A DNA stretch of 64,000 nucleotides from a virus (taxonomy: Duplodnaviria > Heunggongvirae > Uroviricota > Caudoviricetes): IMG/VR virus record IMGVR_UViG_2541047959_000009, one strand, 5' to 3'. The notes under the pieces were generated by a model. It had not been told where the DNA came from and made no database searches. It saw only the letters and a list, made by a program, of their open reading frames with translations. Below are positions 1,897 to 33,329 of the stretch, in pieces; position 1 is the stretch's first letter; every line of letters begins with the position of its first letter. The translations under genes were made by a program, and so were the position numbers.

Positions 1897-4800
1897 GCGT
1901 CGTATCCCCCCTGATCGCTGTAGTTACTCCTGGCTTTTGCCTTCAGCCTGCGTTCACGTTCATCAAGCTGGCGTGCCACCTCCCGCGCAATATCCTGCGC
2001 ACTTTGTCCTGGCTGCGTCTGAATGATGATCTGCGTCGGTGCCTCAATCCGTTGAACGAGTGGCACAGTGGCTGCGCGACTCACAATTGCTTCTCCACCT
2101 TTCGCGGGAAGTGCCAAGGGGTGCAACGGTGGAAGCTCTGCTGGCGCGGCAGCAACGCCCATCATTCCGGCAACAACGGCAGCCAGTGCAGCTGTATTTC
2201 TCCGGCTGGTCACATTTGCCGGGCCGTTAACAATTTCCGGCCCGTTTTCACCGACGATGCCAAACTGCCCGCGCGGGATATACCCGCCGCTGTCATACAT
2301 CCCCGCAAAGCCATATCCCCATGATGGAAAACCACCCGATGGCATCATCACTTTACCGTCTGCATTCACCGTCGCAGGTTGCTGACGCGTCACGCTTTCC
2401 GGCAGTTTTGCCTTTGCGGCCTCTTTACTGACAATGCCGAGCTTCTCCAGCAACCAGGAAACGCCGGATTTCAGGGAGTCCAGCGGATGCATGACCATAT
2501 TCAGCCCTTCCGCCAGTGCCTCCCCGAATCGCCGCCCCATTGCCGCTGCGCTCTGCAGTTCGGCAGAGGTCGACTTAACGGGCGTCAGTAGATCAGTAAA
2601 CCAGCCCCACAGCGCCTGCACTTTGTCGCCAATCCACTGGAACACGGGCTTAAGCGGTTCGAACGCTGCACTGATGGGACCTGCCGCCGCTTTGAATCCT
2701 TCCACCACGCCACCGAGAAATGCGGTGATAGGTTGCCAGTATTTCCAGACAACCAGCGCCACGCCCGCCAGTGCAGTAACCACAAGACCTATCGGACTGA
2801 GCAGAGCACCTAACAGACCAGATATGGCATACAGGGCAACGCGCAGCATCGCCAGTGGACCAGATGCCAGTACTCGCAGCACCGTGCCTGCGGCGGCCAG
2901 TCCACCGCGCAGTACCGCCAGAGGATTCATAAACATCACAGCAACAGCACGTAAACCGGATAATCCAGACCGCAAAAGTGCAACCGGCGCACCTGCTACA
3001 GTTTTCAGGACATTTCCCGTCAGTGATGCCGTGCGGCGCAAAGACGACAACGGCGCAGTAAGTAAACCTGCGGCGTTGCCCGATGAAGCAAGCCCGCGTC
3101 GCAGCAGTGCCAGTGGTGCGCCAGCCAGCCAGGACAACGCGCTGCTGGTTCGAGTTACTGCTGCCGTAACGGAAGATAACGTTTTGATACCCAACACAGA
3201 GAATCCCAGACGGATCACTGCCAGCGGCCCCAGCACTGCAGCCAGCGCCACCGCTAAGGTGCCGAGGCCGACGGTAACCGCAGCCACAACAGCCGATGCT
3301 TTCATCAGTGTGCCTGTCAGTTCCGGGTTAGCTTCCACCCAGCGACGCAACGCCCCCGTGACGCTTTTCACCGTGTACAGAATATCCATCAGCGGCTGGC
3401 GCAGCGTTTCGCCCAGGCTGCTGAAGGTGTTCTGCGCTCCGGTTTTGACCAGCAACCACTGCGCAGAAAGTGAATCCTTGTTAATGTCGGATTCTTTCTG
3501 CATGGAGCCAAGCGCATCATTGCCCGCTGTCAGTTTTAACTGACGCTGCAGTTCCGGCAGGTTGTTTGCCAGTTTCGCCGCGTCATCGCCAAACTCTTTA
3601 CCAAACAACATAGTCATGGCAGACAGGCGCTTGTCCTGCGGCAGCGCGTTTACCTTCTCCAGCACGCGCTGGATGGTTCCCATCGCATCCTTCGTCATCT
3701 GCTTTTCAATCACTTCAGGATTGAGTTTCAGCAGATTCATCCCTTCAAAGAAACTCTTGCTTTGCATGGTGGCAATGGACAATTCACGCACCATCGCGTT
3801 TGCTGCACTGGCTGCAACCTCTGGCGCAGCGCCCAGTGTCAGGAAGGTGGAACCCAGCGCCGCCGCTTTACGATAATCCAGACGGTCAGCCACACCGCCC
3901 AGACGTTGCATCACATCAATGATGTCTGCCCCTTTCGACATGGCGTTATCATCCAGATAGTTCAGCGCATCACCGAGCTGTTCAATATTGCGGGTGGGGA
4001 TTTTGTAGAGCTGGGCGATTTTCCCCAGACTTTCTGACAGTTCATCCGCTGGCAGCTCAAAGGCTGTTGCCGCCTTTGCTGCCGTACTGGCGAAGGCCAG
4101 CAGGTCACGTTTCTGATCTTCCCAGCTGTCGTCAGGGTTTGCGACGTTCATGCGCGCACCACCTTCAACCAGTGCAGCGAAGTCCACCGCACCGTTTTCC
4201 ATCGGCAACTGTTCGCTGGCAGCCTTGATGGCATCCTGCATTTCATAAAAACGTGCAGTGCGGTTGCCATTATCGTCACGCAGACCACTGACCTGCTTTG
4301 CCACACCTTTCATGGCATCTTCCATGCTGGTATAGCTTTTTACTGCCGCCATCACTGGCGCACCCATTGCCAGCCCTGCAGCCGTGGTGGTGGCTCCGGC
4401 ACCTGCAATACGATCACGCACCTCCAGCGAACGGGCATAACTGGCACGCGCTGCATTCATCCTGCGCTGAGCTTCCCCCAGTCGCTTCAGCCGCGCCTCC
4501 TGTTTCGAAAGTTCCTGGTTATAACGTGATGTTTCACGGGCTAAACGGGCAGTTGCTCCCGCATCGTCTTTCGCAGAAATTCCCGCCCGGTACAGTTCAG
4601 CACGCACAAGCGCCGTCTGCCGCTGCAGCTTTTTCTGGCGTTCTTCCAGGCGCTGAACAGCCAGCCGTTGACGGCCCAGAGCAACAACCTGACGTTGCGA
4701 AGGCGGCCCCATCGCTCCCAGTTCCTGACTGAGCAAATTTGCACGCTGGCGGGCATAGTTCAGCCTGTCGCCTAATTTCTGATTTTCTGCCTGCAGCTTT

Positions 4801-7225: not shown

Positions 7226-7243
7226 TTGTATGGAAAATGGCAC
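7226..7243 (-). promoter_or_regulatory. Ogr-type activator box (TGT-N12-ACA) of late promoter for FI-FII-E-T-U-D
   Basis: TGTATGGAAAATGGCACA ~80 bp upstream of FI start. Confidence 0.5.
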
Positions 7244-7251
7244 AACGACGG

Positions 7252-11016: not shown

Positions 11017-11362
11017 TCTCTGCTCCTGTTGATACGGAAAGGGACACAGGTACACCGTTATTCCGCCGCCCGGTCAGCTCCACCATCATTGAACCGTCAA
11101 AATTGCTGTTGATGGTGATGGAATCCAGCATCAGCCGTGGCTCCCAGCGACTCAGCGCCACATACACTGCCGACATGACCTGCAGGCGTAATGCCGGATT
11201 TTGTGGCTGATCTATCAGTGCCGACAGCAGGGAACCATATTCCCGGCGAGCAATGCGGCTACCCTGCGGTGTCAGCAGAATGTCCCGCACCGACTGGCGC
11301 AGATGGTCAATATCAGTAATGGCTTTACCGCTGGTATTGTTCATCCCGCTATAAAGCGTCAT
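11003..11362 (-). CDS. W: baseplate wedge protein W (gp25-like)
   Basis: 119-aa ORF, synteny. Confidence 0.8.
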   Translation of the reverse strand: MTLYSGMNNTSGKAITDIDHLRQSVRDILLTPQGSRIARREYGSLLSALIDQPQNPALRLQVMSAVYVALSRWEPRLMLDSITINSNFDGSMMVELTGRRNNGVPVSLSVSTGAENGSD

Positions 11363-11937
11363 ACCGGGCCTCCGGTTGTATCGCCGCCTTTCAGGACGCC
11401 AGTATGCTGATGCGCATCAACCACGATCCCGTTAGAACTCATCGCACCGCCGCCCTGGGTAACGCCGCCATTGATCACTACTTCACTATTAATACGCGTG
11501 CGGTCAGCCTCCAGCACAAACTCACTGGTTTTCAGGGTGATATTGTCGGCAGCCTCAATAACCATGGATTTGATGCCCCTGACATACCAGCGCCCGGTGG
11601 CGGGTTCGTATTCAAACCAGCCACCGTCAGGATGTTCTGTCACGCAGGCGTCCGCCGACGTCGACGGTGGTGCGAACTGATTCGAATAGACAGCGGGCAG
11701 CGCAAAGGCGGTCTCCAGATTGCCGCCCAGACTCAGCAGCACCACCTGCTCACCTTCCGATGGTCGCCACCATGTCCGGGCATTCCCGGCACGCAGGGTC
11801 AGCCAGCTGATCCAGTTGGTTTCTAAGTCGCCTGTTTTCACCCGACAAAGCCAGTTTTCCCGGTCCACTTCGGTGACTACCCCAGTGCGGATCAGGTTGG
11901 TGATAAGGCGCATGATTTCGGTTAGTTGTGTGTTCAT
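11359..11937 (-). CDS. V: baseplate spike protein V
   Basis: 192-aa ORF, P2 V-like. Confidence 0.85.
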   Translation of the reverse strand: MNTQLTEIMRLITNLIRTGVVTEVDRENWLCRVKTGDLETNWISWLTLRAGNARTWWRPSEGEQVVLLSLGGNLETAFALPAVYSNQFAPPSTSADACVTEHPDGGWFEYEPATGRWYVRGIKSMVIEAADNITLKTSEFVLEADRTRINSEVVINGGVTQGGGAMSSNGIVVDAHQHTGVLKGGDTTGGPV

Positions 11938-11983
11938 GAAAATAGACTGCTATATCTCAAAATTGAGAAGTAGCTTTGATAGT

Positions 11984-12001
11984 TGTATCACGGCTGTCAC
12001 A
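11984..12001. promoter_or_regulatory. Ogr-type activator box (TGT-N12-ACA) of late promoter for V-W-J-I-H-G
   Basis: TGTATCACGGCTGTCACA centred ~55 bp upstream of the V start codon. Confidence 0.5.
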
Positions 12002-12075
12002 AACAACTGGCAAAAAACGACTACTATCTATAAATTATTGAGAGTTATCTCATTAACAAAAAAGAAGCTTGGTAA

Positions 12076-13776
12076 ATGGAACACTTAAGACAACTGCAAA
12101 ATAAAACTTCCCTGTTAGAAAAGTACGGGACTAGTAACGCACATCTTTTATGGTCATTAGGTCTTTACTTAGATGAATCCGATTTTGATAAGCTAGCATC
12201 TGATGGACTTACTGATGGTGGAAACGATAAGAAAATAGACTTCATTACCGTAATTAATTCAACGTTATTTATTGCTCAGGGTTACTACTGCAATCAGCAA
12301 GCACTTAAAATAGTTGCGCCTGCAAATAAAGCTTCTGACTTAAACACTGCTTTAGCGTGGATTATGGCAGGCTCAGGAGAGTCTCCAAATGCAAAATTAA
12401 GAGCAAAAATTTCTGAGGTTAGAAAATTAATTGATGATAACGAAATTGAAGCTGTTGAATTATTATATATCCATAATTGTGCCGAATCTGAGCAGGTTAA
12501 AACTGAGCTTGAAACTTGTCGTGACTATCTAGCAGGTAGATTTGCAGACAAAGAAATTGAGGTAACTTACAGAGAACTTGGTGTTAATAGTCTTGAAAAA
12601 TTGTATATTGCGCTATCACAACAAATTGTTGTGACTGACAATATAAAGTTCAATGGCGAACTTATAAATTCTGTACAAGGTGATGGCTGGACTTCACATG
12701 TTGGCTTTGCAAACGGCACTTGGCTAAATTATTTATACAAAAATTATGGAGCAGAATTATTTTCTGCTAATTATAGGGGGTTCATGGGATTAAATAAGAG
12801 AAGAAAAATAAACTCATCAATTAAGAATACCGCAGAAACATCCCCAAAAGACTTCTTTGTCTTTAACAATGGTGTATCAATCCTAACAACAAAATTCAAC
12901 AAAGAAAAAGGGTTGTTGGAAGGAGTTTCAATCATAAATGGAGCTCAAACCACTGGTTCTATTGGTTCAGTTCAAGATATACAAAAATTAGATGGCCTAA
13001 AAGTCCTTTGTAAGGTTATTGAATGTAATGATGCGGACAAAGTAAAAAAAATAGTCCAGTATAATAATACTCAGAATCATATTACAACCTGGGATCACTA
13101 CTCTAACAGCACAGAACAAAAACAGGTGGCAGAAGAATTTTCCACTCTTGGTTATACATATTCACTGAAACGCGGCTTCGAAAATACTGGTTCTTTATTT
13201 GGCATTGAGTCTGTTGCTCAACCGCTGATAGCGTTACATGGGGATTATGTTAGCGCCAATAGAGGTAAAAACTACGTTTTCGATACAAAATCAGCCTATG
13301 ACAATGCCTTTCATGATTCGAAAGCCCAGCATATTTTATGTGCTTACACTATTTCAAAAGCTATAGAAAAAGTAAAATCTCAAATCCGTGCAAAAGAGAA
13401 TAAAATTAAAGTAGATGAGGATAACTTATTATTCCTCCAAAATTTAAAGTCTCGATTCTTTTTAATATCCGTCATCGGAGAAATACTTGAAGAATTAACA
13501 GATAAACCTTTGAACAAGAAGAAAATAAAATATAAATATGATACAGCATTATCTAAAAATAACTCTCTGGATGATTTAATCGACCTTTGGACACCAGTTA
13601 TAACTGCGATATTACCACATGTTATCCGTGTTTCAGGTCAAGATTTAACCACCTACTTATCTGTAACAGACAACCCGTTATCTATCGTATCAAAGGAAGT
13701 TAAAAACATATTAACATCCTTAAAAGCGTTCCAACCGATTGAGCCATTAATTACTCTTTCAAATCACCTTGAATAA
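12076..13776 (+). CDS. hypothetical 566-aa cargo protein at the S-V variable locus (candidate anti-phage defence; family not recognised)
   Basis: Long ORF on the strand opposite the flanking late genes, AT-rich relative to backbone, own upstream region and terminator. Confidence 0.8.
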   Translation: MEHLRQLQNKTSLLEKYGTSNAHLLWSLGLYLDESDFDKLASDGLTDGGNDKKIDFITVINSTLFIAQGYYCNQQALKIVAPANKASDLNTALAWIMAGSGESPNAKLRAKISEVRKLIDDNEIEAVELLYIHNCAESEQVKTELETCRDYLAGRFADKEIEVTYRELGVNSLEKLYIALSQQIVVTDNIKFNGELINSVQGDGWTSHVGFANGTWLNYLYKNYGAELFSANYRGFMGLNKRRKINSSIKNTAETSPKDFFVFNNGVSILTTKFNKEKGLLEGVSIINGAQTTGSIGSVQDIQKLDGLKVLCKVIECNDADKVKKIVQYNNTQNHITTWDHYSNSTEQKQVAEEFSTLGYTYSLKRGFENTGSLFGIESVAQPLIALHGDYVSANRGKNYVFDTKSAYDNAFHDSKAQHILCAYTISKAIEKVKSQIRAKENKIKVDEDNLLFLQNLKSRFFLISVIGEILEELTDKPLNKKKIKYKYDTALSKNNSLDDLIDLWTPVITAILPHVIRVSGQDLTTYLSVTDNPLSIVSKEVKNILTSLKAFQPIEPLITLSNHLE

Positions 13777-13780
13777 ATAA

Positions 13781-13802
13781 CGGGTGGCCTCCTAGGCCAC
13801 CC
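13781..13802. terminator. bidirectional hairpin terminator between cargo gene and S
   Basis: Perfect 9-bp stem CGGGTGGCC/GGCCACCCG with 5-nt loop between convergent genes. Confidence 0.7.
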
Positions 13803-13831
13803 GTTCATAACTTATTTTTAATCTAAAATTT

Positions 13832-14290
13832 TTACGGCTTATTGTTATTAATTAACCATTGATAAAAAACATTCTTAACGTTGTTCTCAATATCATTGTT
13901 AATACCCAACAAACGCCGCTCTGCATACCGTACGTCCGGTCCTTTGCGACTGACGCGATCACGCAGACCGTAATGGTGAACACGGGCAATGCGCTGTACC
14001 TTACCTTCAAACTGCACGCTGGCAGAGTCGGCGCTGGCGGCAGTTTTCAGGTATTTTGTGGTGCGCAGCTTTGCAAACATCTGACGTTTGATACGGCCTT
14101 TTTTACTGCGTGCTGTTACCCGTCGCGGTTCATAGCTGCTGCCGTCAGGGTTGCGCTGCATCCTGATATTCTGCTGCTGTGTCCGGCGAAGTTCCTGCGC
14201 CAGCTGGCGCATCATGCGGCTTCTCGAGGCTGGTTCCAGATTCGCCAGCAAGGCACTCAGCCAGTCGTCCACCTTCTGCAGTTCAGCCAC
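13832..14290 (-). CDS. S: tail completion protein S
   Basis: 152-aa ORF, synteny. Confidence 0.8.
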   Translation of the reverse strand: MAELQKVDDWLSALLANLEPASRSRMMRQLAQELRRTQQQNIRMQRNPDGSSYEPRRVTARSKKGRIKRQMFAKLRTTKYLKTAASADSASVQFEGKVQRIARVHHYGLRDRVSRKGPDVRYAERRLLGINNDIENNVKNVFYQWLINNNKP

Positions 14291-19729: not shown

Positions 19730-19747
19730 TGTACCGACAACCACACA
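19730..19747. promoter_or_regulatory. Ogr-type activator box (TGT-N12-ACA) in divergent P/O late promoter region
   Basis: TGTACCGACAACCACACA between divergent O and P starts. Confidence 0.45.
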
Positions 19748-32105: not shown

Positions 32106-33329
32106 ATGCGCAACATTATCGAATTAGAACAGATATCGGAAGAACTAAAAAAACATGAACTATTGCAACCCCCATTCATTGCCGAGGGAAAACTAATTTC
32201 TGACTTTTCTAAGAGAGTCGAGTGCTATTTAGAATTAATTGACTCCATTAGAAATAAATATCCTGACAACGAGATAATTAAACAAGTAAAGATTCGCACA
32301 AAATCAATAATATATTTATCTGATAAAATAATAGAAACTCTTAAGCTATTTTTAATAGGAAATGTTAAAGAAGCTTATAAAAAATTCGATTTGGCAATTA
32401 CCAAGTCATCAATGCATACTCATCTTTATAAGATGACTGTTCCTCTAACTAAATTATGCAACCCACACACCCCTTTATTTCGCGTAAGGAAAAGTGAGTG
32501 CATCCTAAAACAAAGAGAAGAATTATTTCATATACCATTTAAAAATAGACATTTAGTTAGCGCACAAAGATTTTCTGTATCCGGTCTTCCATGTTTATAT
32601 CTTGGAACATCAATATTTGTATGTTGGCAAGAAATGGGAAAACCTGACTTTGATAAACTTTACATATCTTCCTTCATATCCGATAAAGAAAATTCAAATA
32701 TAAGAATTTTAGATCTTGGGTACAATTTAACATCTGCACTTCGTACAAAACCGGGAGATCTTTGGTATTCATTCGAACAAGGTTCAGATGATGATTACGA
32801 TCTAAATAATGATAATTTCATGGATCAAATTAATGATAAAATTTCAAAGTTGATTGCATGGCCTTTAGTCCTTGCATGTAACTATACAAAAGATAATGAA
32901 AACGCAAGTTTTAATAAAGAATACATAATACCAAACCTATTAATGCAATGGATTAGTAGTGACAGAAACAAAAATATATCAGGGATATCGTATCGATCAA
33001 CAAAGATATTAAACCAAAAAGATAGCGATATTGGGATTAATGTAATTATCCCCCCAAAAATAGAAAACATAGTTGAAACCAATGATACCCACTGTCCTGT
33101 TTTAAAAAAAATATTTAGAGTTACAAACCCTGTTTCCTGGACTGTGTTTAGTACACTAGAAGCCACCCCCTATCTATACAAAAATAATTTTAATTTTTCG
33201 ACCTATAATCCCGCAAAAGGATGGATTGAAGACTTTGATGAATCCCTTGTTGAACATTATGAAAATACCACTTTTAGAAAAGTTGAACTCCTTATTCATC
33301 AAATGATGAAGTATGAATATTTAAAATAA
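32106..33329 (+). CDS. RES-domain protein (candidate NAD-targeting toxin/abortive-infection effector), 407 aa
   Basis: AT-rich ORF starting 4 nt after int stop; RES-like signature AQRFSVSGLPCLYLGTSIFVCWQE. Confidence 0.6.
   Translation: MRNIIELEQISEELKKHELLQPPFIAEGKLISDFSKRVECYLELIDSIRNKYPDNEIIKQVKIRTKSIIYLSDKIIETLKLFLIGNVKEAYKKFDLAITKSSMHTHLYKMTVPLTKLCNPHTPLFRVRKSECILKQREELFHIPFKNRHLVSAQRFSVSGLPCLYLGTSIFVCWQEMGKPDFDKLYISSFISDKENSNIRILDLGYNLTSALRTKPGDLWYSFEQGSDDDYDLNNDNFMDQINDKISKLIAWPLVLACNYTKDNENASFNKEYIIPNLLMQWISSDRNKNISGISYRSTKILNQKDSDIGINVIIPPKIENIVETNDTHCPVLKKIFRVTNPVSWTVFSTLEATPYLYKNNFNFSTYNPAKGWIEDFDESLVEHYENTTFRKVELLIHQMMKYEYLK

Follow-up and report, generated by a model that had tools for sequence, protein, structure and literature searches.

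An AIPR/AbiU-family cargo gene at the S-V junction of a P2-like Escherichia coli prophage, a candidate stand-alone anti-phage protein

P2-like phages carry morons in three regions, and one of these is the junction between genes S and V, the orf30 region (PMC3091744, PMC6823313). Here we describe the gene that lies at this junction in a virus record from IMG/VR (IMGVR_UViG_2541047959_000009), of which a stretch of 64,000 nucleotides, the window, was analysed. An earlier reading of the same DNA, made from the letters alone (the sequence-only reading), had placed a single open reading frame (ORF) for 566 amino acids between S and V, on the strand opposite to the late genes, and had described it as more AT-rich than the phage backbone. 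Both observations are borne out: the ORF lies where it was said to lie (Table 1), and the GC content is 0.30–0.38 over positions 11900-13850 compared to 0.53–0.61 in the flanking late genes. The gene has a foreign GC content, lies between the O-operon terminator and the pV activator site, and is absent from related phages, as P2-type morons are. It is a horizontally acquired cargo gene (moron) at the S-V (orf30) junction. Over this region, E. coli S88 (NC_011742), MS7163, N53 and BEN5202 show 100% identity to the window, and the ORF is intact in all four.

The gene had been labelled unassigned and undescribed, and this label does not hold. The Pfam family AIPR (PF10592) matches residues 229-498 with profile positions 1-289 of 308 at 90.9 bits (E 1.6e-25), which exceeds the gathering threshold of 25 bits by more than 65 bits. 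The AbiU model of PADLOC (PDLC02357) matches with E 1.7e-24, where profile positions 138-513 of 537 align with residues 115-511 and leave the N-terminal nuclease core uncovered. PHROG 1841, which is annotated 'Abi ... abortive infection', matches over the full length (E 4.3e-146), and in RefSeq the protein from E. coli S88 already carries the name 'AIPR family protein'. The faint AIPR resemblance that the sequence-only reading had offered as a guess was right; its idea of an undescribed defence determinant has to be given up, since these profile searches find strong homology to a known defence family. Profiles for MzaE also match, with E 5e-9 in PADLOC and with 50.3 bits for NCBIfam NF041935, where the equivalog cutoff is 1050. 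On these matches, the gene is best described as a further, already annotated, prophage-borne member of the catalogued AIPR/AbiU family. Judging from its sequence and its relatives, we consider it probable (roughly 0.6) that it encodes a stand-alone anti-phage AIPR/AbiU protein, possibly with a nucleotide-regulated, nuclease-type mode of defence.

Table 1. Positions of the cargo gene, its domains, its flanks and other features in the window
Feature	Position	Strand	Remarks
AIPR/AbiU-family gene	12076..13776	+	566 aa; RefSeq WP_000400690.1
N-terminal restriction-endonuclease-fold domain	12181..12720	+	~aa 36-215; non-canonical core
AIPR Pfam domain	12760..13569	+	aa 229-498; PF10592 match
ParB/sulfiredoxin-fold part of the AIPR domain	12760-13110	+	~aa 229-345; invariant NYRGF, NNG, I-N-G-A-Q-T-T
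C-terminal all-helical domain	13333..13773	+	aa 420-566; pLDDT ~89-97 in the full-length model
Gene V	11359-11937	-	192 aa; left flank; RefSeq: baseplate assembly protein V (baseplate/spike)
Gene S	13832-14290	-	152 aa; right flank; RefSeq: virion morphogenesis protein (tail completion)
Divergent intergenic region, V start to AIPR start	11938..12075		P_V (minus strand) and AIPR 5' region 12002-12075
TGT-N12-ACA dyad (TGTATCACGGCTGTCACA)	11984..12001	-	Ogr/Delta-type late activator box of P_V
Hairpin AACGGGTGGCCT-cct-AGGCCACCCGTT	13779..13805		between the convergent AIPR and S stop codons
Cassette-specific AT-rich 3' end of S	13832..13920	-	alternative C-terminal tail of ~22 aa
Replication endonuclease gene A (gpA)	24959-27399	-	RefSeq annotation: frameshifted

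The domains of this protein are not apparent from standard searches alone. Against PDB sequences, a profile search had no hit with E under 0.5, a Foldseek search with the model of the 566-aa protein gave no significant match, and a Pfam scan of the separated domains at E<=10 gave nothing for the N-terminal or the C-terminal domain. The full-length AlphaFold model has a mean predicted local distance difference test (pLDDT) score of 83. In the model, the N-terminal domain shares an alpha/beta core with type II, IIS and IV restriction endonucleases (REases), and this predicted fold superimposes on FokI; the published model of AbiUi also superimposes on FokI through its nuclease-like N-terminal fold (PMC13064643), and AbiU-1 has been placed inside the PD-(D/E)XK superfamily (PMC13099982). 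The core is formed by D47, D51, D55, Q68-G-Y70, K85, D88, N90, H133, N134 and E137. Conservation was scored across 111 full-length homologs with identities down to 42%, and T46, D47, D51, D55, Q68, K85, D88, N90, H133, N134, E137 and E144 are invariant in all of them (111/111). The same is true for the NYRGF, NNG and INGAQT motifs further downstream. What is missing is the canonical D...(D/E/Q)xK triad: D55 and Q68 are invariant, but the position of the lysine is taken by Y70, which is Y in 107 homologs, F in 3, H in 1, and never K. The sequence-only reading had seen no PD-(D/E)xK motif, and it was correct in so far as the canonical lysine is missing, although the REase fold is present. That the acidic residues and the fold are kept while the lysine is gone explains why the motif was not seen. 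K85, which is invariant and sits on the next helix, might act as a substitute for the missing catalytic lysine; rearranged PD-(D/E)xK enzymes with a relocated lysine have reportedly been found, in work by Steczkiewicz et al. from 2012 to which PMC13099982 refers.

The central domain has a ParB/sulfiredoxin fold, and KorB is among its fold matches. Its motif is I-N-G-A-Q-T-T, without the Arg/His of GxxRxxA, DGQHR or DGQQR. In another explanation, the protein would not cut at all. The degenerate REase fold would then be a recognition module and the ParB-fold domain a nucleotide-gated clamp or a DndB-like repressor, and the protein would load on incoming phage DNA and block its transcription. KorB and DndB are ParB-fold NTP (nucleoside triphosphate)-dependent transcriptional repressors (bioRxiv 10.1101/2025.10.10.680097), which speaks for such a silencer together with KorB being one of the fold matches; so do the lack of lysine at position 70 in every one of the 111 sequences and the phenotype of AbiU, which is reported to be a delay of phage transcription (PMC13064643). 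However, the REase core is surrounded by twelve invariant residues that are polar or charged, which one would sooner expect of an active site than of a surface for binding, and K85 on the following helix could stand in for the lysine. We consider a non-catalytic DNA binder improbable.

ParB-like domains are also found in GmrSD, BrxU and SspE, where a DUF262 ParB-like NTPase gates a C-terminal DUF1524 nuclease of the HNH (His-Me) type. In the protein described here, the nuclease domain is N-terminal instead and has an REase fold, and NGAQTT takes the place of the DGQ(H/Q)R motif that is found in GmrSD/BrxU/SspE and in DndB. One could still think of an analog of GmrSD/BrxU/SspE, i.e. a type IV-like, modification-dependent restriction enzyme that destroys modified phage DNA without killing the host. 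This has a similarly low probability as a silencer. The Pfam families DUF262, DUF1524 and DndB do not match the 566-aa protein (a scan of each domain by itself did not bring up DUF262 or DUF1524 at E<=10 either), the domain order and the type of nuclease differ from those of GmrSD, and no reader domain for modified bases, SRA-like or otherwise, was seen; moreover, the name of the family derives from an abortive-infection phenotype. A further candidate from the literature is a HEPN domain, which was once suggested for the N-terminus of AIPR proteins (PMC3506569) and for which a later paper from the same group substituted ParB and other nucleases (PMC3632139). It was rejected, as no HEPN fold match was found and as the invariant residues do not include R and H at Rx4-6H spacing. 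The third domain, at the C-terminus, is helical and less conserved than the other two.

Among known systems, one of the closest is AbiU (AbiUi/AbiU1) from the Lactococcus lactis plasmid pND001. It is a single protein of similar size, and its PADLOC model covers the AIPR core of the 566-aa protein, in contrast to the first 114 residues, with the nuclease core motifs, which do not align to it. Related AIPR proteins have QxK where the subfamily described here has QGY. There are also differences in setting: no AbiUii-like HEPN partner gene is found beside the 566-aa gene, and AbiU is located on a lactococcal plasmid, the 566-aa gene in a P2-like prophage of E. coli. A second relative is pFR77 from E. 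coli E1167, an AIPR protein of a P4 satellite and thus also single-gene cargo of an element of the P2/P4 system. It has the same two-domain layout, with an hhalign probability of 99.3% over 310 columns, whereas BLASTP gives ~30% identity, in the AIPR core only. In the alignment, the canonical Mrr-type core VDGADDNGID...VQSK of pFR77 aligns with TDGGNDKKID55...AQ68GY70, and YNNGITI and IVNGAQTV of pFR77 with FNNGVSI and IINGAQTTG. The two genes occupy different hotspots, namely psu-int of P4 in the case of pFR77 and S-V in the other. MzaE (NF041935), finally, has the AIPR core in common over residues 213-349. It belongs to a five-gene system, mzaABCDE, and its profile demands 1050 bits; a solitary gene at 50.3 bits is not MzaE.

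How a stand-alone AIPR/AbiU defence protein would work can be outlined from these parts. As the moron lies between the O-operon terminator (after S) and P_V (before V), it could be transcribed independently of the late genes in a lysogen. The product combines an N-terminal REase-fold domain with Tyr in place of Lys, a helical C-terminal domain and, between them, a ParB/sulfiredoxin-fold domain bearing the AIPR signature. Invading phage DNA would be sensed or bound by the ParB-like part together with the helical part, perhaps with nucleotides as a regulator, as other defence proteins with a ParB fold have them (GmrSD/BrxU/SspE, DndB), and sensing would then license the nuclease-fold domain, so that phage nucleic acid would be cut or blocked early in infection. 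An early effect of this kind would agree with lactococcal AbiU, for which a delay of phage transcription has been reported. We infer a defence role for this gene, with nucleic acid as the probable target, possibly a dependence on nucleotides, and an outcome that may be abortive or direct. Several points weigh against this picture. Nuclease activity is not assured because the canonical catalytic lysine is absent (Y70), and NTP binding is not assured because the ParB-fold motif is without Arg/His. The protection reported for lactococcal AbiU is only 10- to 100-fold, again along with delayed phage transcription (PMC13064643, after Dai et al. 2001). The E. coli protein pFR77, the only E. coli AIPR known to be cloned and tested, is found only in Table S2B of Rousset et al. 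2022, under 'additional tested systems', and not among the systems validated there against eight coliphages.

Homologs of the 566-aa protein are numerous and widespread. A word-indexed search found >1000 of them, nearly all of them full-length at ~570 aa, in Enterobacteria, Aeromonas, Burkholderia, Clostridium, cyanobacteria and Bacteroidota. An exhaustive profile search, which covered 1.84 billion cluster representatives, gave 7615 representatives for the broad AIPR family at E<=1e-3, and 377 for the full-length subfamily at E<=1e-30. With more than a thousand homologs and these 377 representatives, a chance ORF can be excluded. Relatives with 76% identity are located on Klebsiella IncF/IncR plasmids, where they adjoin an IS3 element and a NACHT gene. 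On chromosomes the neighbours vary, from housekeeping genes in Aeromonas to a type I restriction-modification (R-M) operon or an EAD11/NNH5/nSTAND1 system. A gene that stands alone while its neighbours change is what one expects of defence genes that are mobile and self-sufficient.

The same junction is used by AIPR genes in two distant P2-like viral contigs. In one of them (L014), the AIPR protein is 76% identical, and V and S are 44% identical; in the other (L018), the identities are 42% for AIPR, 50% for S and 30% for V, and the flanks have 66–69% GC. Both of these AIPR genes are on the same strand as the late genes, unlike the copy in the window, so the slot accepts either orientation. The GC content of AIPR is well under that of the high-GC flanks in L014 and in L018-L021, whereas the difference is small or absent in L017 and L022. 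In L022 (4001-5744), the AIPR homolog is split into two ORFs of 146 and 430 aa, and two genes precede it, one with a Dam-like methyltransferase motif at the start of the product and the other a second gene for 566 aa; the homolog is a copy with a frameshift or else a methylase-linked two-part variant.

The sequence-only reading had taken the S-V junction for a replaceable, variable cassette, and a comparison of this junction in related prophages agrees with this, as does the literature. From evenly spaced related E. coli records, 54 junctions were scored: 34 are empty (68 bp) and 20 are filled with other cargo, which in E. coli and Klebsiella prophages consists of one or two genes. In four further sampled records, V and S are separate and >2 kb apart. 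The other cargo includes a TIR-domain protein, a Sll1717-family P-loop ATPase together with a hypothetical protein, an FRG-domain protein, PcfJ and many hypotheticals, and a DUF6216 gene is found in the slot of E. coli B and BL21. The P-loop ATPase, as encoded at 2765-4276 of a Klebsiella phage (L004), has 503 aa and the Walker A motif GRKGTGKT; its Pfam and PADLOC matches are weak. AIPR genes fill the slot in 9/1042 E. coli genomes with a related prophage. They come as two alleles with 83% amino-acid identity, and the second allele retains all motifs. In phage P2 itself the slot has the same architecture, with S, the O-operon terminator, opposite-strand AT-rich foreign cargo, the pV activator site and V. 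Its cargo there, orf30, is short, non-essential, without a known function and unrelated to the 566-aa gene; other morons of P2 are tin/old and Z/fun. The hotspot survey by Rousset et al. 2022 dealt with the cos-proximal A-Q and the P4 psu-int regions, and not with S-V.

The borders of the cassette can be placed by comparing four junction states, namely the window, an empty site (L003), the second AIPR allele (L002) and the Klebsiella phage with P-loop cargo (L004). On the left, the border is exactly at the ATG of V, as the four states diverge from 11938 on. On the right, it lies past 13831 and inside S, at ~13,900-13,950, so that the last ~25-30 codons of S are included. Compared with S from the empty site, the identity of S falls from 1.00 (14040 onward) to 0.80 at 13920 and to 0.37 at 13832, and the last 75 nt of S have 25% GC here versus 55% in the empty state. 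The S protein ends in ...GINNDIENNVKNVFYQWLINNNKP in the window, in ...GVNDDVEAMTRDMILQWLAG in the empty state, and in ...GIAEKEQSFIFYTLISWLQ with the P-loop cargo. Since each cargo type comes with its own S tail of ~22 aa, the end of S tolerates replacement and travels with the cassette.

Upstream of the cargo gene, the sequence-only reading had described a leader of its own that is AT-rich. The region is AT-rich, but it belongs mainly to P_V, which leaves 74 bp (12002-12075) for the cargo. This follows from the TGT-N12-ACA dyad, which in 4/4 junction states with otherwise unrelated surroundings keeps its centre at a distance of 55.5 bp from the V ATG, counted from the first base, and from the P2 record, in which the corresponding site is marked 'activator binding site; activation of pV promoter' and the transcription start of V is on the first base of its ATG. 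The evidence for the box rests on this conserved position, because the 15 such dyads in the window are about the number expected by chance (~16). Two other dyads probably mark the late promoters P_P and P_F: the one at 19730-19747 repeats the spacing found at V, with its centre 55.5 bp away from the terminase ATPase gene (start codon at 19794), and the one at 7227-7244 lies ~84 bp upstream of the start of the tail sheath gene (7151). For the cargo gene itself, a promoter scan was uninformative, with 6 sites versus 7 expected and none on the plus strand in 11938-12075. A weak -10-like TAnATT, common to the phage alleles, is found ~40 nt upstream of the AIPR ATG and is a putative promoter at most.

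Downstream, a bidirectional terminator with a perfect 9-bp stem had been proposed. The hairpin is there, and its stem is longer than stated, at 12 bp (8 of them GC). It folds with a free energy of -22.6 kcal/mol on the plus strand and -24.0 kcal/mol on the minus strand (z -6.8 and -6.0), and 0/200 shuffled sequences fold as well. Only on the minus strand is the stem followed at once by a U-rich tract; the T-run on the plus strand begins 9 nt past the stem. The P2 record has a 'putative rho-independent terminator for O operon' at the equivalent place, between S and orf30. Probably the hairpin serves as terminator for the transcript of the cargo gene as well as for that of the late O operon.

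The element as a whole is a 186/P2-like prophage adjoining ssrA, with CI, CII, Fil, Ogr/Delta and a complete set of late genes. Because of the frameshift annotated in gene A, the prophage is possibly defective, with its cargo genes still intact. One of these is a 469-aa gene at 22642-24051 (minus strand), which is a 'hypothetical protein' in RefSeq (WP_000008839.1). Its neighbours are the portal gene Q on one side and a DinI-like gene on the other, which places it in the cos-proximal P2 hotspot. A Pfam scan of its product gave no match, and the PD-T7-1 model of PADLOC matches over the full length (E 1.3e-196, 652 bits; PD-T7-5 with E 1.4e-56). With this PD-T7-1 homolog and the AIPR gene, the prophage carries two defence-type cargo genes. 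The possibility that the 469-aa gene is pFR103, a 'Putative HEPN' gene from strain S88, was rejected; pFR103 was compared with this gene only.

A defective prophage could also carry the AIPR gene as a neutral passenger while it decays, or the gene could be a moron with a role outside defence. The frameshift annotation of gene A would be in line with this, and so would the low frequency of AIPR in the slot (the 9 genomes mentioned above) and the fact that the distant E. coli relative pFR77 was not among the validated systems of its screen. Against this, four unrelated isolates have the ORF intact and without any difference, a second allele (83% identity) keeps every motif, and the subfamily is strongly conserved across phyla. 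The company of the gene and its relatives also includes defence genes, in the form of R-M, nSTAND/NNH5, other S-V cargo and the PD-T7-1 homolog. Of the explanations considered here, we find this one the least likely.

Taken alone, the gene is one more prophage-borne entry in the catalogued AIPR/AbiU family. We know of no solved structure and no demonstrated biochemical activity for any AIPR protein, and as a compact, single-gene, native E. coli AIPR with defined invariant residues, the protein has value as a model. The remaining interest is in the unsolved mechanism of AIPR proteins, in the lysine-less nuclease core and in the diversity of the S-V slot, most of it still unexplored. A larger claim would be that the ~570-aa AIPR subfamily is a mechanistically distinct, single-protein immune enzyme, in which a ParB/sulfiredoxin module without Arg/His gates a lysine-less QGY nuclease with a rearranged active site, and, separately, that S-V is a second defence hotspot of P2-like phages, one not yet mined in a systematic way. 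We regard this as possible and rather doubtful. About one in three related E. coli prophages has the slot filled, mostly by unannotated single genes, some of them with defence-type domains, and given this diversity of cargo it is a useful and well-anchored place to find new systems.

A last observation concerns the edge of the prophage. Immediately past the integrase lies a gene for a 407-aa hypothetical protein (32106-33329, plus strand), for which Pfam and PADLOC scans gave no match. An annotated PD-(D/E)XK nuclease-domain gene follows ~740 bp downstream. The 407-aa gene could be further cargo.

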